Origin: Escherichia phage vB_EcoM_Schickermooser
Sequence record: NC_048196.1
Length of the DNA stretch: 64,000 nucleotides
Direction: 5' to 3' (one strand)
Shown: piece after piece, positions 11,157 through 64,000 of the stretch
Numbering within the stretch: position 1 is the first letter of the stretch
Layout: each line of letters opens with the position of its first letter
Translations under genes and position numbers: made by a program
Notes under the pieces: generated by a model
Database searches by the model: none
Seen by the model: only the letters and a program-made list of their open reading frames with translations
What the model was told of the DNA's origin: nothing

Positions 11157-12116
11157 TTAGATTCCAATAATAGTTGCTGCTCGTTTATCTTTGGATCTGG
11201 TGTTTGCTCTACTACGTGACAAACCTCCACAAGATTCACAACGAATGATATCGAAAGAACTTACCGCAGTGTGGTATTGTTTACCAGTAACAACGTGAAC
11301 GTGATCACTGCCACAACGAGAACAACGGACCTTCTCATCTGGGTAATAAGCGGATAAGTTAGGATGCTGTGGAATCCACGGAAGGATTTTCATATACAAA
11401 TCACGGAGCGAAACAACATCACCATCATTGTAAATCTGCATACGTTCAAAAGCATCACGATCACCTTCACAACATGCTTTCCATAAAGGGAACCCCTCGT
11501 TATCCAGTTTTTCACTTTCTGTTTCGAAATATGCTCCCATTTCTTTAAGGGAGTTGGAAGGAAGTGCAAATTGTTTCTTAGCTGCCTTCAATGTATCAAC
11601 AACTACATAATTAGAAGGAGGAGCCATATCGTGATATGCAAATCGTTGGTTAATGTATGCACGGTCAAACTTATATCCGTTGTGTGCCACAACTACATCT
11701 GCCTCATTCAGAAGGTTCCAAAGATCTTGGCAAAGCTCCCAATCATCTGTATGATCAATATCAAAAAGAGGATAAGAAGACAAGTTCTTACCTTCCACTT
11801 CACCAGTATACAGGTCGGCAGAAGAGTAAGATAACAAATAACCCCTACGAATTACTTGATCTGGAGAAATGAAGGCTTTGAATCGACGGAAAGTATATGC
11901 AATCTCTGGTGCAGTTTCAACATCAATAATTTTAATAACTGGTTGTTTCTTTTTAACTGGCTCTTGTTTACTTGCTCCGAATCGTGCAAGGAAATCGTTC
12001 ACTGTGCTTTTTCTTGTTGGACTACCTAAAACAATTGCTGCAATATTGCGAGAAGACATACCCTCTGCACTCATACTAAGGATATCTGCTTTCTGCTCTT
12101 CTGTTAATCTGCTCAC
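11157..12116 (-). CDS. DEDD-type 3'-5' exonuclease with C-terminal zinc ribbon
   Basis: DVET (Exo I) and HNGYKFD (Exo II) motifs; CSRCGS...CESCGG. Confidence 0.5.
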   Translation of the reverse strand: MSRLTEEQKADILSMSAEGMSSRNIAAIVLGSPTRKSTVNDFLARFGASKQEPVKKKQPVIKIIDVETAPEIAYTFRRFKAFISPDQVIRRGYLLSYSSADLYTGEVEGKNLSSYPLFDIDHTDDWELCQDLWNLLNEADVVVAHNGYKFDRAYINQRFAYHDMAPPSNYVVVDTLKAAKKQFALPSNSLKEMGAYFETESEKLDNEGFPLWKACCEGDRDAFERMQIYNDGDVVSLRDLYMKILPWIPQHPNLSAYYPDEKVRCSRCGSDHVHVVTGKQYHTAVSSFDIIRCESCGGLSRSRANTRSKDKRAATIIGI

Positions 12117-13231
12117 TCTGCCTCCTGTTGCGAGATGTATGACTGAAGCATACTCTCAAATGTTGTATCGTCATTATCCCAGCGTTTCATGTATACCAAC
12201 TGGAAAATTGTTTCTATCCATTCATCTGTTGTCATATGGACTTCTTCTCCATCCCAAGAAGTAAAATTAACACCATCTGGGAACCATGAGTAGTAAGTAT
12301 CTTTAACTGTTTGGAAAAGTTCTGCTTGAGTTTTACAAGCTGAAAGAAGATTAAAACAAGTAATATCTCCGAACTTAATATCAAAATCTTGATAAGGTCG
12401 GATACTATCTGTTTTATCTCCCATTAGCATCTGATATGCTAACCAGTAACTGCCCCAACCTTTAACTTCTTTCTTTTTACCTTTATCTACGATCCATATG
12501 TCGCCAATAGACTCGTCAATAAGAATTATATCTGGATTTTTAAATACTCCATCCTCTTTGTAGAAATTAAAAAGGATACTAGGAGTATGTAAACTATCTT
12601 TATCTATAGATACAACGATATAAGAAAATTTACCCGTCCTTTTATAATCTTTATAACCTTGGAAACCATACTTCTCTAACTCATCATCAGCTTCTATTAC
12701 AGTAACAACATCACCATTGTGGAACTCCACAAGATAATCTTTGGTTTCTGAAAGCTGGAGTGGTTTGATATCTAATCGTTCAGATTTATATTCTACAGGC
12801 ATTTTGAAGGCGTGTCTGAAAGTTTTTCCTACGCCAATAACTCCGCAATATTTTTCTAAACGTAGATGTTTTAGAATACCTAAGACTTTTGTTTTAGCTG
12901 CTTGGAAGGTGTGTCCGATATCTTCTGGCGGATATTGCTTATCAATGATTTCGAACTCTTCCTTTGTGAAGGGACGTTTGTTTTTGGAGGCTCTTTCTGC
13001 ATTTGTATCTCCTAGCCAACCTCCAATTTTAGTCTTGCTTTTACCCCAAAACTCTGTCTTATTTTTAAATTCCTTTTGAGCACCTGAAGGGATGTGCTTC
13101 GCAATGATTGTTCTTTTCTCTAATGCAGACGCTGCTTGGAAAGCGATCTGATCATAATCAATTGCAGCTATTGTTTCTTCGTTGACATATAAATGAAGAT
13201 CTTCAGGTTTAATTAAAATATAACCGCTAAT
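12113..13231 (-). CDS. T4 RNase H-like 5'-3' exonuclease / flap endonuclease; start codon uncertain
   Basis: Track ORF 12113..12802 starts at an internal Met; frame is open 143 further codons upstream with no ATG/GTG/TTG; N-terminal IDYDQIAFQAASAL resembles T4 RNase H. Confidence 0.45.
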   Translation of the reverse strand: MSGYILIKPEDLHLYVNEETIAAIDYDQIAFQAASALEKRTIIAKHIPSGAQKEFKNKTEFWGKSKTKIGGWLGDTNAERASKNKRPFTKEEFEIIDKQYPPEDIGHTFQAAKTKVLGILKHLRLEKYCGVIGVGKTFRHAFKMPVEYKSERLDIKPLQLSETKDYLVEFHNGDVVTVIEADDELEKYGFQGYKDYKRTGKFSYIVVSIDKDSLHTPSILFNFYKEDGVFKNPDIILIDESIGDIWIVDKGKKKEVKGWGSYWLAYQMLMGDKTDSIRPYQDFDIKFGDITCFNLLSACKTQAELFQTVKDTYYSWFPDGVNFTSWDGEEVHMTTDEWIETIFQLVYMKRWDNDDTTFESMLQSYISQQEAE

Positions 13232-13243
13232 ATTTCCCCCTAA

Positions 13244-13453
13244 TTATTCATCGTCATCCTCTGTTGAGAATGTTTTAGTATACGGACATTGACGACTTTT
13301 CGGGATTGCTATAACTTCATCTTGGTTAGCGTTAGAATAGTAGCAATATTTTGTGTTGCCATTAACTTCAGAATCAGACAAGATTAAAGTAATTTGACCT
13401 GCTGCTACTGTGAAACTAAAAGCTAAAAGAACGACTGTCAGAATCTTTTTCAT
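13244..13453 (-). CDS. small secreted protein (signal peptide, 69 aa)
   Basis: MKKILTVVLLAFSFTVAAG hydrophobic N-terminus; AGGAGG RBS. Confidence 0.45.
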   Translation of the reverse strand: MKKILTVVLLAFSFTVAAGQITLILSDSEVNGNTKYCYYSNANQDEVIAIPKSRQCPYTKTFSTEDDDE

Positions 13454-13463
13454 AACGCCTCCT

Positions 13464-13492
13464 AAAAAGCCTACCTCATTAAGTAGGTAGGC
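13464..13492 (-). terminator. hairpin plus T-run (minus orientation)
   Basis: 8-bp stem GCCTACCT/AGGTAGGC followed by TTTTT on minus strand. Confidence 0.4.
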
Positions 13493-13525
13493 ATAATATC
13501 ATAACTAATCCCGCAAGTCAAGAAC

Positions 13526-14404
13526 TTATTTAAGGATTGTTGCTTTGGTTAAATCTTCCATCAGACCTCGAATCTCATTGAAGCACAGAAGGACTGAAGC
13601 TTCAATACTACCTTCTTCGTCTGCAAAATATTTCGGAAAACGTAGTTTAGAAAGTTTAAACTCTTTATCCACTACAAAATCTACAACACCGTCATATTCA
13701 AGACCGATTGCAACAACATCTTTACCATCTTCTTTTAGTTCGACAGCTTTAGACTCGTATAGAGATTCTTTACTCCAAACAACAACGCCCTCGCTATCCT
13801 CCATTTTGATATAATTTCCGAGAGTAATACGATCTGCTTCGTGATTCTCCAGCAATTCACCAAAACCTTTTACAATAGCTTCTTCGTGCACACTAAAACC
13901 TACCGAAGGGAAAGTCCCCAGGACGGAACGGAGGAAAGAAGTAATCTCTTCTGCAACCTTTTTACTTCCATTAAGAACATAAAGAAGATTCGTAGTTTTA
14001 TCCAAGACAACATAGTTAAAGAAATCTTCAGGTTCTGTTTCAGGCAATAGTGCAAATTCAATATCTTCTTTCATTGCTTTGACTACTTCTTTATCGACAT
14101 AAAACTCTTTACCTTCGCTCTCCATGTCCTGACGCATTTCTTCTAGACGTTCATTCAGAATACGTTTAACTTTCTTTTTATCTACCTTCTTCACAGATTG
14201 ACCTACATTAAGCAGTTCAAGATCTGAAAACTCTTTTACAAATTTAGAGTCATCTTCGAAACGAACAAGACCGATAGTGTGTGACTGGGAGCCTTCTGCT
14301 GTTACAAATTCCAGAGGAATATCTGTAATGCTGTTAAGGGATGCTACAGAAGCATTGTCACCAACAACCATAGGCAGAGCGGATTTAAAAGATTTTACAA
14401 ACAT
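13526..14404 (-). CDS. hypothetical acidic protein (292 aa)
   Basis: Track ORF. Confidence 0.5.
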   Translation of the reverse strand: MFVKSFKSALPMVVGDNASVASLNSITDIPLEFVTAEGSQSHTIGLVRFEDDSKFVKEFSDLELLNVGQSVKKVDKKKVKRILNERLEEMRQDMESEGKEFYVDKEVVKAMKEDIEFALLPETEPEDFFNYVVLDKTTNLLYVLNGSKKVAEEITSFLRSVLGTFPSVGFSVHEEAIVKGFGELLENHEADRITLGNYIKMEDSEGVVVWSKESLYESKAVELKEDGKDVVAIGLEYDGVVDFVVDKEFKLSKLRFPKYFADEEGSIEASVLLCFNEIRGLMEDLTKATILK

Positions 14405-23946: not shown

Positions 23947-24021
23947 GGCCCTGTAGCTCAATGGGAGAGCTGTCGGCTCATAACCGATAGGTAGCTGGAT
24001 CGAAACCAGCCAGGGCCACCA
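23947..24021 (+). tRNA. tRNA-Met or Ile2 (anticodon CAT)
   Basis: Cloverleaf folded by hand; anticodon loop CTCATAA; encoded CCA. Confidence 0.8.
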
Positions 24022-24023
24022 AA

Positions 24024-24098
24024 GTCTTTATGGTGTAATGGATAGCACAGGAGTCTTCTAAACTCTTAGTCAAGGTTCGATTCCTTGTAAAGACACCA
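24024..24098 (+). tRNA. tRNA-Arg (TCT)
   Basis: 7-bp acceptor stem, loop CTTCTAA, T-loop TTCGATT, encoded CCA. Confidence 0.8.
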
Positions 24099-24294
24099 GA
24101 ACATTTTAACATGAATTAGCTCAAGTGATTTGAACCCACTACTGATCATGGTGGCAGAGAATGAGGCAAGTATGTCAGACATTATAAACAAAGGCCACGG
24201 TTATATTAGAAGACATAAATGCTCGAAGAGCACCGTTCGTGGAGAACGGGGGTTGGTGGAGTCACCATTCATGGTAAAATGTTTTAAAAAACTA

Positions 24295-24324
24295 TTGACA
24301 ACAAGTATTATTTTATGTTAGATT
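24295..24324 (+). promoter_or_regulatory. sigma70-like promoter, copy 2 of AACTATTGACAA family
   Basis: TTGACA-18nt-TAGATT. Confidence 0.45.
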
Positions 24325-24332
24325 ATAAGTAT

Positions 24333-24423
24333 GGAAGGGCAAATCGACGTGGCGACGAAAACGGTCTTGAAAACCGCCGAGCTTTAAAGAGCCTTGGGAG
24401 TTCGACTCTCCCTCCTTCCGCCA
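24333..24423 (+). tRNA. tRNA-Ser (TGA), long variable arm
   Basis: Loop CTTGAAA, long extra arm, discriminator G, CCA. Confidence 0.7.
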
Positions 24424-24428
24424 GGTTA

Positions 24429-24514
24429 GGTAGATTGGTGAAATGGTAGCCACGACAGTTTGCTAAACTGTAGTCGGAAACGGCGTGTAGGTTCGAGTCC
24501 TACATCTACCGCCA
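24429..24514 (+). tRNA. tRNA-Ser (GCT), long variable arm
   Basis: Stem ACAGT/ACTGT, loop TTGCTAA, long extra arm, G73, CCA. Confidence 0.75.
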
Positions 24515-24644
24515 AGTTCTTTTTAATGTAGCTTACTTTAATAGAGTAAACTTTCGGCAAATGGCCCCCACCATCTTACCGATAACTCATAGTTAGTGGT
24601 GCGAACACTGGCTATTTTAAAAAGAATTTAAATACTAGCATTTA

Positions 24645-24732
24645 GGTGAGTTAATTCCGTAGGGGTAGCGGGGCAGACTGTAAATCTGTTATCATTGCGA
24701 TTCGGGTGGTTCGACTCCATCACTCACCACCA
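24645..24732 (+). tRNA. tRNA-Tyr (GTA), long variable arm
   Basis: Anticodon arm GCAGA-CTGTAAA-TCTGT closely matches E. coli tRNA-Tyr; A73, CCA. Confidence 0.7.
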
Positions 24733-24738
24733 AATTAA

Positions 24739-24824
24739 GATGAGTTGGCTGAATGGTTTAAGCGGCGGACTGTTAATCCGTGTTCGAAAGAACGATATAG
24801 GTTCAAATCCTATACTCATCGCCA
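24739..24824 (+). tRNA. long-variable-arm tRNA with Asn-type anticodon arm (GTT)
   Basis: Acceptor GATGAGT/ACTCATC, 3-bp D-stem, anticodon arm GCGGA-CTGTTAA-TCCGT, 15-nt extra arm with GTTC-GAAA-GAAC hairpin, G73, CCA. Confidence 0.55.
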
Positions 24825-24831
24825 GAATTAT

Positions 24832-24910
24832 GGACTTGTAGAGTTAAGGTAAACCCCCCAGTCGCCAAGAGGCTTCTGGAATTGCAGGTATCGAATCCTG
24901 CCGAGTCCCA
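24832..24910 (+). ncRNA. tRNA-like element with degenerate D and anticodon arms
   Basis: Acceptor GGACTTG/CGAGTCC and T-arm-like hairpin present; no canonical anticodon arm. Confidence 0.25.
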
Positions 24911-24915
24911 GCTTT

Positions 24916-24990
24916 GCTCCTATAGTATAATGGCTATTACAACGGTTTTGTAATCCGTGGATCTCTGTTCGATTCAGAGTGGGAGCACCA
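24916..24990 (+). tRNA. tRNA-Thr (TGT)
   Basis: Loop TTTGTAA, T-loop TTCGATT, CCA; one mismatch closing anticodon stem. Confidence 0.7.
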
Positions 24991-25263
24991 ACACAACATT
25001 AAGGGCACTGTGATTGATCGTCGTATCCTGTGCACAAGGTCTGTTCGAAAGACAGTGTTCTTAGTATTGTGTTGATCACAAAAAGAGTTACCTGAAACTT
25101 GACCGGAGTAGGGTTGGATGGGGCAAAAGAAGAAGCGGCTCTCCCATCGACAGCAACGAAGAATAATATTTGACTTTGGTTTTGTATTATTTTAAGTTAG
25201 CTTACCGAACGTAGGGCTAGTCACCCAATGGGATACTCGTCACTGTCCCACTCAATAAAACTA

Positions 25264-25293
25264 TTGACAACCAATAGTAAAATGTAGTATAGT
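25264..25293 (+). promoter_or_regulatory. sigma70-like promoter, copy 3 of AACTATTGACAA family
   Basis: TTGACA-18nt-TATAGT. Confidence 0.55.
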
Positions 25294-25304
25294 AAAGATG
25301 TAGG

Positions 25305-25378
25305 GCGTTCTTGGTGTAGCGGTAGCATTCCGTCCTTCCAAGTCGGCGGCACGAGTTCGATCCTCGTAGAACGCTCCA
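25305..25378 (+). tRNA. tRNA-Gly (TCC)
   Basis: Loop CTTCCAA, T-arm ACGAGTTCGATCCTCGT, discriminator T, CCA; layout like E. coli tRNA-Gly. Confidence 0.75.
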
Positions 25379-25476
25379 AATTATTTAATAAAGGGTTGCC
25401 AGAAAACTTTCTCTTTTACTCATGGTTTTCTCCTTCTCTCACACCTCTTCTGGTTGCCCTTCATTAAATGATTTAT

Positions 25477-25552
25477 TGGTTTGTAGTGTAGTCAGGTAGC
25501 ACACGACACTTTGACTGTCGTAGGTTTGGTTCAAATCCAGACAGACCAGCCA
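25477..25552 (+). tRNA. tRNA-Gln (TTG)
   Basis: Stem CGACA/TGTCG, loop CTTTGAC, CCA. Confidence 0.7.
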
Positions 25553-25557
25553 TATAA

Positions 25558-25634
25558 CGGAATTTAGCTCAGTTTGGTAGAGCATACGCTTTGGGAGCGT
25601 AGGGTCGCAGGTTCGAATCCTGCAATTCCGACCA
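25558..25634 (+). tRNA. tRNA-Pro (TGG)
   Basis: D-arm GCTCAGTTTGGTAGAGC, loop TTTGGGA, CCA. Confidence 0.8.
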
Positions 25635-25640
25635 ATTTAA

Positions 25641-25714
25641 TGTTTCGTAGTTCAATGGTAGAACCCACGACTGATAATCGTGAGACACAAGTTCGATTCT
25701 TGTCGAAACAACCA
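25641..25714 (+). tRNA. tRNA-Ile (GAT)
   Basis: Stem CACGA/TCGTG, loop CTGATAA, CCA. Confidence 0.75.
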
Positions 25715-25716
25715 AT

Positions 25717-25790
25717 TTCCCGTTAGACTTACAGGATAAGAGTTCCACAGCTTATTGTGATGCTGGTTCGAATCCAGCACGGGATACATA
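25717..25790 (+). ncRNA. tRNA-like element with non-canonical anticodon arm
   Basis: Acceptor, D and T arms (GCTGG-TTCGAAT-CCAGC) present; anticodon region folds only as CACAG-CTTA-TTGTG hairpin; no encoded CCA. Confidence 0.3.
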
Positions 25791-25792
25791 AT

Positions 25793-25871
25793 AGCGGGAT
25801 AGAGGAGTCTGGTCGTCCTCGCCAGTTTCATATGCTGGAGATCATCGGTTCAAATCCGATTCCCGCCTCCA
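25793..25871 (+). tRNA. tRNA-Met or Ile2 (anticodon CAT), second CAT tRNA
   Basis: Loop TTCATAT, T-loop TTCAAAT, CCA; A1-C72 mismatch. Confidence 0.65.
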
Positions 25872-63139: not shown

Positions 63140-64000
63140 TCAGAATGGAATATCATCGTCGAAGTCCATTGGAGGTTCTTCTTGATTACTTGGAGTTGGT
63201 TCTGGTTGTGGTTCAGGTTTCTTAACTTCTTTCTTCTCTTCTTTCTTAGGCTGTTCTGCGGAACCACGAATGGCAGCAGCAACTTTATCAGACAGAGCCA
63301 GAACTTTACGAGCAGAATCAATCAGATCTTCTACAGAGACAGTCTTGATGGTATGGTCTTTACAAGCATTGAGAATAGCGTGACCAACAGATGCCCCAAG
63401 ATCATAATCATTAATATCAACGCCACGAGATTCAGCAATTTCAGATTTCAGCGTGACAGTTGCAGATTGAACAACCCCAGCGATATCGAAAGCATCGCCT
63501 TTAACACCATTACGAATCAGTTCCAGTGCACCATTTACTGCGTGACCAGTTTCCAGACCTACAGTATCACGTTTTTTATAGGACTGCTTAGGAGCAGCAT
63601 CGTTGGAACCTTTATTGCCAGAAGATTTGTTAGACTTCTGAACACCATCGGTAGACAATACTGTAATACGAGATTTTTTAGTATTGTAGTAAGTTTTACC
63701 GCCTTTATTATCAACGCGATCAATATCAATACTTACTTCTACACCTTTTTCAATAGTGATCCAATTATCACCTTCTTTGACTTGCAGGTTTTCATAACCT
63801 TCTTTCAGTTCAATGTCACCAAGAGAAATCCAAACACCTTTCTCATCTGGTTTAGCACCTTTCTCTTTCAGAACAAGAGAAGCTCGGTGAGTTGAAACAA
63901 TCGTTTTTCCTTCCCAATGGAAGGTTTTAGGTTCAGCGAATTTATCCAGTTTAACGTAGTCTACGATACCAGTTGCATAAGTTACGGTTTTGCCTTTACG
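63140..64000 (-). CDS. ssb: single-stranded DNA-binding protein, partial (5' end beyond window)
   Basis: C-terminus ...EEPPMDFDDDIPF; frame stays open upstream of track start (TTG at 63658) to window edge. Confidence 0.5.
   Translation of the reverse strand, partial: RKGKTVTYATGIVDYVKLDKFAEPKTFHWEGKTIVSTHRASLVLKEKGAKPDEKGVWISLGDIELKEGYENLQVKEGDNWITIEKGVEVSIDIDRVDNKGGKTYYNTKKSRITVLSTDGVQKSNKSSGNKGSNDAAPKQSYKKRDTVGLETGHAVNGALELIRNGVKGDAFDIAGVVQSATVTLKSEIAESRGVDINDYDLGASVGHAILNACKDHTIKTVSVEDLIDSARKVLALSDKVAAAIRGSAEQPKKEEKKEVKKPEPQPEPTPSNQEEPPMDFDDDIPF

Follow-up and report, generated by a model that had tools for sequence, protein, structure and literature searches.

The phapecoctavirus gene annotated as a 229-residue "exonuclease" very probably begins 143 codons upstream of its annotated start, at an AUU codon (positions 13231–13229, minus strand), and would thus encode a complete 372-residue 5′-3′ exonuclease of the flap endonuclease (FEN) family. 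The stretch of DNA analysed, 64,000 nucleotides in length and called the window below, is from a phAPEC8-like coliphage of the genus Phapecoctavirus and is 100% identical to Phapecoctavirus genomes. We infer the ATT start by elimination and by comparison among relatives. The features on which the argument turns are as follows.

12113–13231, minus strand: full-length 5′-3′ exonuclease/flap endonuclease coding sequence, 372 codons plus TGA, with an ATT start
13229–13231, minus strand: putative near-cognate initiation codon ATT, assigned by lineage comparison, with decoding as fMet expected
13236–13241, minus strand: Shine-Dalgarno (SD) sequence AGGGGG, followed by the 4-nt spacer AAAT and then the ATT
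12803–13228, minus strand: exonuclease N-terminal codons 2–143, absent from most annotations and without ATG, GTG or TTG
13157–13159, minus strand: codon for Asp25, near-invariant, in the N-terminal extension
13151–13153, minus strand: codon for Asp27, near-invariant, in the N-terminal extension
Within 12803–13228, minus strand: codon for Glu38, near-invariant, in the N-terminal extension
12800–12802, minus strand: ATG of Met144, the start in most genome annotations and an internal codon of the 372-codon coding sequence

The frame of the annotated protein (12113–12802, minus strand) stays open upstream as far as a TAA at 13246–13244. Of the 147 open codons up to this stop, 143 are counted from the ATT, and none is ATG, GTG or TTG; the initial annotation's description of a 143-codon extension lacking a canonical start is borne out. 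The chance that a coding stretch of 143 codons is free of starts is 0.006 to 0.001, calculated from summed ATG, GTG and TTG rates of 3.5% (the C-terminal part of the gene) and 4.7% (the 47 long ORFs of the window). The exonuclease has the sole long start-free ORF extension that lies wholly within the window. Other long start-free extensions were considered and set aside: one leaves the window at its end, position 64000, and the rest are noise-like.

Sequence comparison and structure prediction support the proposal that the 143 extra codons are coding and supply the true N-terminus of a FEN-type 5′-3′ exonuclease. The PHROG 107 family ("exonuclease") matches residues 10–367 of the 372-residue product (E = 1.4e-55), and the 143-residue extension by itself matches the same family (E = 5e-7). 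In tblastn searches, the alignments to homologues in rV5, Ro1, PAK_P5 and ICP1 begin at query residues 1–7. Compared with eight relatives, the extension has a pS of 0.66–0.89 and a pN of 0.16–0.34. For codons 2–14, pS is 0.78–1.11 and pN is 0.10–0.24; since pN is far below pS, it follows that these codons are translated. Among 68 homologues, E180, D182, D183, D210, D212, D272 and D275 are invariant, and conservation reaches 90% or more at D25, D27 and E38. Thus, the protein has the carboxylate set of the FEN family, about 7–8 residues that bind two metal ions and begin close to the N-terminus. These carboxylates presumably correspond to those of the T5 enzyme, the match being made by spacing rather than by residue-level superposition.

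The AlphaFold2 model of the 372-residue protein (pLDDT 96.4, pTM 0.90) is a single domain assembly, and the predicted strands of the extension, 16–25, 39–46, 93–100 and 127–137, together with its helices, belong to that one fold. The model has the PIN-like or resolvase-like nuclease fold common to T5 FEN, ExoIX, T4 RNase H and the 5′ nuclease of Pol I. Its best Foldseek matches are T5 FEN and ExoIX, with T4 RNase H in fifth place. Pfam gave no significant match for the protein or its two halves; among the 68 aligned homologues, PF02739 is found in 16 (best E = 1.7e-6) and PF01367 in 1. A PDB sequence search, with the single sequence or with the 68-sequence profile, gave no match, so the tie to solved FENs depends on comparison of folds. 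The initial annotation had proposed a FEN-like gene whose N-terminus lies in the extension and resembles that of T4 RNase H. The first part is upheld by PHROG 107, PF02739 and the predicted model; the second holds at the level of the fold, with no sequence match in the PDB.

The local start context is TAA-TTAGGGGGAAAT-ATT. The SD spacing of 4 nt is the mode among the window's canonical starts (12 of 29). In the whole 64 kb, the exonuclease alone shows GG[AG]GG followed, after 4–5 nt, by an ATT, ATC, ATA or CTG at the head of an ORF 100 codons or more in length. The mRNA around the start (13180–13290) gives no sign of a special structure, with an MFE of −17 kcal/mol and z = −0.34.

The homologous codon was compared in 22 distinct lineages, reaching down to ~50% identity, and it is always ATT, ATC, ATA or CTG. 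The tally over 18 + 4 distinct contexts is ATC 10, ATT 6, ATA 4 and CTG 2, and GG[AG]GG lies 4–5 nt ahead of the near-cognate codon in every lineage. The near-cognate clade is monophyletic, whereas its sister clade of rV5-like phages has ATG, GTG or TTG at the aligned position. Conservation of isoleucine codons (ATT, ATC and ATA) is by itself no proof of initiation. The argument for the start therefore depends on the two CTG lineages (L019 and L056), on the SD spacing, and on four lineages (L017, L029, L030 and L032) with an in-frame TAA immediately before the ATC, so that the near-cognate codon is the very first of the open frame. Three marks of a near-cognate start of the infC and pcnB type are found here, namely, an open path to D25 and D27 that is free of canonical start codons, an SD at working distance, and clade-wide conservation of codons known to initiate. 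The initial annotation had singled out this ATT as the only plausible initiator, just past the stop of a small upstream gene. That arrangement is what we find, and the near-cognate codons of FEN homologues in related phages, at the same position, argue for the same choice. The clade-wide conservation of the near-cognate start appears to be previously unreported; our literature search, of incomplete coverage so that absence is no proof, found no account of this case, whether among papers on ATT/AUU starts in phAPEC8-like phages or in those on phages at large, and it turned up no ribosome-profiling or proteomic dataset for these phages.

The surroundings of the gene bear on how ribosomes would reach the AUU. 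The neighbouring elements are as follows.

13244–13453, minus strand: upstream ORF of 69 residues with a hydrophobic, signal-peptide-like N-terminus
13469–13521, minus strand: promoter-like site TTGACT-17-TATTAT with a TG, identified by consensus matches only
11157–12116, minus strand: downstream gene annotated as "DNA polymerase exonuclease subunit", with its GTG start and the exonuclease TGA overlapping as GTGA

The promoter-like site is followed by a hairpin and a T-run, just upstream of the 69-residue ORF; judged by sequence, the site is likely the 5′ boundary of the transcription unit. Counterparts of the downstream gene in related loci match Pfam PF13482 (RNase_H_2). The stop of the 69-residue ORF, TAA at 13244–13246, lies 12 nt ahead of the ATT. 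This ORF and the exonuclease share a frame in the window, and the frames differ in phages phiWec181 and alia. In other relatives, the gene upstream is another one altogether, a methyltransferase gene in L054 and an HNH gene in L056.

It is possible, though we think it the less probable course, that most initiation at the AUU is by termination-reinitiation, which is a variant of AUU initiation. Ribosomes that complete the upstream ORF would then remain on the mRNA, be retained by the SD and restart at the AUU, and expression would follow that ORF instead of depending on de novo initiation. In every lineage read, an upstream stop lies 1–21 nt ahead of the near-cognate start, often overlapping the SD (TAGGAGG), and upstream ribosomes may therefore contribute. 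In reporters of infC, with its UAA GGU AUU arrangement, roughly half of the initiation is de novo and half is reinitiation (PMC3592434). However, the coupling partner is not conserved, given the different upstream genes just described, and short gaps are normal in packed phage genomes. The strong SD at the phage's modal spacing provides what de novo initiation calls for. In addition, overexpression of IF3 depresses reinitiation too, according to one report (PMC2268962), so coupling offers no obvious bypass of start-codon discrimination. Of the two options named in the initial annotation, AUU initiation or reinitiation coupling, we regard the former as the best reading of the sequence evidence.

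It is unlikely that translation begins slightly further on, at some other non-canonical codon such as the ATT at codon 5 or 7 (ISGYILIK), or that it has more than one starting point. There are further ATH codons among the first eight, but only the first codon keeps a constant distance of 4–5 nt from GG[AG]GG in all lineages. The low pN relative to pS in codons 2–14 also speaks against a downstream start. Moreover, the aligned start in the CTG lineages is not an isoleucine codon, and the downstream positions there vary as ordinary codons do.

We consider it highly improbable that the 229-residue product from the ATG at 12802 is the real protein, with the upstream 430 bases decayed or non-coding. 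That start is the one annotated in most GenBank records, but the upstream region is under purifying selection in the exonuclease frame and holds the near-invariant D25, D27 and E38 and core FEN strands and helices. The ATG at 12802 is preceded by cacgccttcaaaATG, which contains no Shine-Dalgarno sequence, and four lineages (L018, L019, L036 and L047) have no canonical start at or near the equivalent position. The annotated starts of relatives are arbitrary, falling at the first TTG, GTG or ATG anywhere from codon 11 to codon 145.

Scarcely credible is the idea that the N-terminus derives from stop-codon readthrough, or a frameshift, out of the 69-residue ORF. In its favour, the window and several relatives have the two frames in register, in the window with the TAA alone between them, and a protein database holds a 444-residue "fusion" protein, P0005. 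Against it, neither a fixed frame nor a conserved upstream partner is found across the relatives, and a secretion-signal peptide on a DNA nuclease would be functionally senseless. P0005 was examined as a natural fusion and discarded as a gene-caller artefact: its junction is a TAG in the contig, and the translation of the locus differs from the query.

The chance that a sequencing or assembly error destroyed an ATG is practically nil, and this idea has nothing for it beyond the oddity of the start. At least 50 phage genome records, deposited by many laboratories, match the 73 bases surrounding the ATT with 100% identity, as do the metagenome contigs L012 and L026 (identity is 97–99% in the other ten among the matches listed, 13 in all), and divergent relatives have ATC, ATA or CTG in place of the ATT. 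The ATT is thus no read error, and the miscalled-ATG explanation that the initial annotation had named as fatal to its proposal falls away. We reject all three of these readings: an error in the sequence, a fusion made by readthrough or frameshift, and initiation at Met 12802.

For the AUU start, we propose the following course. The AGGGGG, at the usual spacing of this phage, would set the P site of the 30S subunit on the AUU, and initiator fMet-tRNA would pair with it by a third-position mismatch, as in E. coli infC and pcnB; the mechanism itself is already known from those genes. The codons used by the clade, AUA, AUC, AUU and CUG, coincide with the set of four near-cognates whose initiation in E. 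coli runs at 1–2% of the AUG level, and proteins made in this way carry Met at their N-terminus (Hecht et al., bioRxiv 10.1101/063800). Because IF3 discriminates against near-cognate codons, output of the exonuclease would be low, perhaps a few percent of the AUG level. Initiation may also gain from ribosomes that finish translating the upstream ORF, whose stop is 12 nt away. The nuclease would process Okazaki fragments and flaps, the role of T5 D15, T4 RNase H and T7 gp6.

The weak start would have arisen once, at the base of a Stephanstirmvirinae-like clade, and been kept down to ~50% protein identity, with drift among AUU, AUC, AUA and CUG and no return to AUG, GUG or UUG. About 6–7 start-codon switches can be placed on the tree, and the probability of never reaching ATG by chance is (2/3)^6, ~0.09, so that the case for selection favouring a weak start codon is statistically modest and no more than suggestive. 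The likeliest reason for keeping the weak start would be an advantage in having the nuclease at a dose that is low or sensitive to IF3.

It is tempting to see the near-cognate start as a regulatory device based on initiation fidelity in the infected cell, either a sensor of IF3 level like that of infC or a site served by an initiator-like tRNA of the phage, but we give this idea a small chance. The phage encodes a tRNA-Met(CAT), at 25793–25871, with initiator-like features in the acceptor stem (a 1:72 mismatch, G2:C71 and C3:G70). Its anticodon stem is without the run of three G:C pairs on which IF3-dependent proofreading depends. Throughout the Stephanstirmvirinae, the tRNA keeps an identity of at least 92%. 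In rV5, whose exonuclease starts with TTG, the annotated tRNA cluster has only an ordinary G1-C72 CAT tRNA. The co-occurrence of tRNA and start codon is a single contrast, phylogenetically confounded. Against a role for the tRNA, the exonuclease has the lone such start detectable in the window. If the idea were true, it would bring something new, an initiator tRNA that the phage supplies, that evades proofreading and that allows starts at AUU, AUC, AUA and CUG.

An independent curation agrees with the ATT start. The phage ESCO13 (GenBank KX552041.2/RefSeq NC_047770.1; CDS AQM50955.1/YP_009786567.1) is annotated with the same 372-codon limits and an ATT start, and its records carry an RBS feature just 5′ of the ATT. 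The genome announcement is silent on this start (PMC5374246); ESCO13 differs from the present case in being a database annotation only. In the other phapecoctavirus records inspected, the gene begins at Met144. Since the clade uses only ATT, ATC, ATA and CTG, most public genomes miss about 40% of the gene. The nuclease is described minus its first 143 residues, including a putative catalytic Asp, in the majority of public genomes from this group of phages. Spurious small ORFs have been called in the gap, as in phAPEC8 and Ro121lw, where the following "hypothetical protein" is annotated.

12880–13002, minus strand: 40-residue ORF in another frame

We dismiss this ORF as a gap-filling artefact, for it sits within the conserved exonuclease frame. 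Gene callers limited to ATG, GTG and TTG will repeat the error, and several of these phages are candidates for therapy or biocontrol, for which annotations are reused.

Among the closest known systems are the exodeoxyribonuclease genes of rV5/PVP-SE1-type phages (Vequintavirinae), which are full-length orthologues with 37–42% identity. Their N-terminus aligns at the same position, in rV5 behind GGAGG plus 4 nt; these genes have canonical starts, TTG in rV5 and GTG, TTG or ATG in others. The T7-like gp6 "exonuclease" genes are weak matches (E from 2e-7 to 9e-6). T5 D15, ExoIX (Xni), M. smegmatis FenA and T4 RNase H share 12–21% identity with the phage exonuclease over ~210 aligned residues, and the phage protein is ~100 residues longer, with insertions. 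We know of no non-canonical start codon in the genes of these four enzymes.

In E. coli, infC and pcnB are the only genes with confirmed non-canonical (AUU) starts (10.1101/063800), and the phage gene is like them in its AUU, its presumed use of initiator tRNA, its SD and its position near the stop of an upstream cistron (10.1101/063800, PMC3592434, PMC5499595). The weak codon of infC is phylogenetically conserved as AUU or AUC (10.1101/063800, PMC3592434, PMC5499595). The differences are that the phage gene encodes a DNA nuclease, whereas infC and pcnB encode a translation factor and a poly(A) polymerase; that it has no evident autoregulatory logic; that its clade also uses AUA and CUG; and that its start is predicted from sequence. 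With the exonuclease, the E. coli translation system would gain a third case, one that is natural and carried by a phage. An evolutionary series is built into it, one start site with AUU, AUC, AUA or CUG set against UUG, GUG or AUG in the sister clade, which makes it testable whether weak codons are selected for the dose of a potentially toxic nuclease and whether they respond to IF3.

The frame of the ORF at 12113..12802 (minus strand) stays open upstream to a TAA at 13246-13244, a run of 147 codons, 143 of which are counted from the ATT at 13231-13229. As the initial annotation claimed, the extension has no usual start: ATG, GTG and TTG are all absent from the 147 codons. Given the combined rate of these three codons, taken from the window's own sequence (3.5-4.7%), the chance of a start-free coding stretch of 143 codons is 0.001-0.006. 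The start context is TAA-TT-AGGGGG-AAAT-ATT, in which the TAA doubles as the stop of a 69-aa ORF (13244..13453) that has a hydrophobic N-terminus and lies, in the window, in the exonuclease frame. No second comparable case, either of a start-free extension or of a Shine-Dalgarno sequence followed by a near-cognate codon and a long ORF, was found inside the 64-kb window.

The 1.8 kb around the exonuclease start are 100% identical to several genomes of Phapecoctavirus, the phAPEC8-like E. coli myoviruses of the subfamily Stephanstirmvirinae, and the region has 95-100% identity to 63 phage records in all. A sequencing error at the ATT, which the initial annotation had named as a possible refutation, is ruled out because at least 50 phage genome records share the same 73 bases around the start. 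The records of Campylobacter phages B15, C3 and A150, Acinetobacter phage vB_AbaM_ABPW7 and Klebsiella phage ZCKP1 have 99-100% identity here to E. coli phapecoctaviruses and justusliebigviruses; the hosts given in these records are questionable.

As had been proposed, the extension is coding sequence and forms the nuclease's N-terminus. The 372-aa product matches PHROG 107 ('exonuclease') over residues 10-367 (E=1.4e-55); taken by itself, the 143-aa extension still matches (E=5e-7). Homologues were found by tblastn in 1231 phage records, and the alignments of the rV5-like, PVP-SE1-like, PAK_P5-like and ICP1 homologues begin at query residues 1-7. In comparisons with eight relatives, pS in the extension is 0.66-0.89 and pN 0.16-0.34, the C-terminal part being much alike; codons 2-14 already give a pS of 0.78-1.11 and a pN of 0.10-0.24. 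Across 68 aligned homologues, the extension's D25, D27 and E38 reach at least 90% conservation, and E180, D182, D183, D210, D212, D272 and D275 are invariant. AlphaFold2 gives a single confident model (pLDDT 96.4, pTM 0.90), to which the extension contributes strands 16-25, 39-46, 93-100 and 127-137 and several helices. Searching the PDB by sequence with the exonuclease gave no match, nor did the window protein itself match Pfam; 16 of the 68 homologues match PF02739. Were the product to start at Met144, it would be without the earliest of the conserved carboxylates and without several core fold elements.

Homologous loci were drawn from GenBank phages, IMG/VR, metagenomes and contigs encoding database homologues. 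Every member of the window's clade, down to about 50% protein identity, has GG[AG]GG, a spacer of 4-5 nt, a near-cognate codon and the conserved N-terminal peptide. The clade holds 22 distinct near-cognate start contexts, with ATC at the start position in 10, ATT in 6, ATA in 4 and CTG in 2. In four loci (L017, L029, L030, L032) an in-frame TAA stands directly 5' of the ATC, and therefore the frame opens exactly at that codon. The position is not merely a conserved isoleucine, since two loci (L019, L056) have CTG. The near-cognate clade is monophyletic, and its sister clade has TTG (as in rV5, likewise with GGAGG + 4 nt), GTG or ATG at the aligned position. Among canonical starts in the window, 4 nt is the commonest distance from GG[AG]GG (12/29). 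Depending on the lineage, the first canonical codon further downstream falls between codon 11 and codon 145; it has no Shine-Dalgarno sequence, so annotated starts vary between records. On these comparative grounds, the interpretation of the initial annotation, that the ATT at 13231-13229 would initiate the exonuclease, is supported.

In two metagenomic loci (L036 and L047, ~590-605; Ga0308161_1000186 and Ga0308160_10000206), an out-of-frame ATG occurs in the spacer right after the Shine-Dalgarno sequence (GGAGGATGTTATT), 1 base from GGAGG, and might compete with the in-frame ATT. In Raoultella phage Ro1 (L008 410-420), the annotated ATG is only 1 nt past GGAGGA, and a TTG three bases 3' of it has the clade-typical 4-nt spacing and aligns with the GTG/TTG starts of relatives; the annotated start may be off by one codon.

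Ribosomes terminating upstream may plausibly contribute to initiation at the ATT, because the upstream stop is 1-21 nt from the near-cognate start in all lineages. At infC (UAA GGU AUU), about half of initiation was via terminating ribosomes in reporters (PMC3592434), and reinitiation is also lowered by IF3 overexpression (PMC2268962). Initiation at an ATH codon (ATT, ATC or ATA) slightly downstream seems very improbable, being at odds with the conserved Shine-Dalgarno spacing and with the coding signal in codons 2-14. Readthrough and frameshifting out of the upstream ORF are both excluded, since the frames of the two genes differ in phiWec181 and alia, and the upstream position is taken by a methyltransferase gene in L054 and by an HNH gene in L056. 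The sole 'fusion' protein in the database, P0005 (444 aa, 48-member cluster), was rejected as support for readthrough: its source (L025 1501-2835, Logan contig SRR30397360_28145) has TAG at the junction where the protein has Q. It was apparently called with a stop-reassigned genetic code, fusing a signal-peptide ORF to the exonuclease, and such artefacts could mislead fusion searches. There is no indication of a special mRNA structure around the start.

If the ATT is the initiator, its weakness may itself be maintained. Synonymous sites are saturated across the near-cognate clade, and the start codon, in at least 6-7 switches, has always stayed within the four near-cognates, with no change to ATG, GTG or TTG; ATG is one third-position change from the ATH codons, and any of the three canonical codons can be reached from CTG by a single first-position change. 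The pattern suggests that low or IF3-sensitive expression of the nuclease is selected for; the chance of never reaching ATG over so few events is roughly 0.09, which is no more than suggestive. Non-AUG starts can serve regulation, beyond mere attenuation (PMC5499595).

The window also carries tRNA genes, as follows.

23947-25871, plus strand: cluster of 10 tRNA genes (Met, Arg, Ser, Asn, Thr, Gly, Gln, Pro, Ile-GAT, Met; ARAGORN)
24645-24729: eleventh tRNA-like match (Rfam, 39 bits; no ARAGORN call)
25793-25871, plus strand: tRNA-Met(CAT) with an initiator-like acceptor stem (A1xC72 mismatch, G2:C71, C3:G70, G4:C69)

The anticodon stem of the last (C-G, C-G, A-U, G-C, U.G) is without the run of three G:C pairs that initiator tRNAs typically have; its T-loop, TTCAAAT, matches that of E. 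coli tRNA-fMet. This tRNA has at least 92% identity in Phapecoctavirus, Justusliebigvirus and Klebsiella phage phi1_175008 (Stephanstirmvirinae), and one record labels it 'tRNA-Pseudo-CAT'. In the rV5 record, read up to its last 38 kb, the annotated tRNA cluster has only an ordinary G1-C72 CAT tRNA. A link between the initiator-like tRNA and near-cognate initiation is speculative, and is weakened because no such start other than that of the exonuclease could be detected in the window. In the first CAT tRNA (23947-24021) the acceptor stem, GGCCCTG, is like that of E. coli ileX, so this tRNA may be a lysidine tRNA-Ile reading AUA.

Two elements flank the pair of genes.

13469-13521, minus strand: promoter-like site with an extended -10 (TTGACT-17-TG-TATTAT), between the rdgC-like gene 13526..14404 and the 69-aa ORF
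12113-12116, minus strand: GTGA overlap of the next gene's GTG (12116-12114) with the exonuclease TGA (12115-12113)

In the former, the promoter-like site, a GC-rich hairpin with a T-run, and the AGGAGG of the 69-aa ORF adjoin one another in that order, as a combined terminator/promoter module. The latter is a classic coupling arrangement; the downstream gene carries the annotation 'DNA polymerase exonuclease subunit', and PF13482 is present in its counterparts at related loci.

The ESCO13 records (KX552041.2, NC_047770.1) give a 372-codon 'putative exonuclease' from the same ATT, with an RBS feature; the ESCO13 genome announcement makes no mention of the ATT start. The records of phAPEC8, Ro121lw, iGC_PHA_EC001 and EF1-1 begin the exonuclease at Met144, and that of phi1_175008 at an internal ATG, with small ORFs called in the gap, on the opposite strand. 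Spurious gap ORFs are as follows.

12880..13002, minus strand, other frame than the exonuclease: 40-aa 'hypothetical protein' annotated in phAPEC8 and Ro121lw
L001 2199-2321 and L007 475-840: small CDSs in the exonuclease gap of relatives

In practice, N-terminally truncated versions of the exonuclease are widespread in public annotations. The ATT start itself is already known, in one curated record; in the literature, of which coverage was incomplete, we found no published description of this start codon or its conservation. What appears to be new is the clade-wide conservation of four near-cognates, where the sister clade has canonical codons.

Initiation at a near-cognate AUU that follows a Shine-Dalgarno sequence is a mechanism of an already known kind. 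Confirmed AUU starts in E. coli are those of infC and pcnB only (10.1101/063800). Hecht et al. (10.1101/063800) measured ATT, ATC, ATA and CTG as E. coli start codons of a second tier, initiating at 1-2% of AUG and giving a Met N-terminus, and the start codons seen in the exonuclease clade are this same four-codon set.
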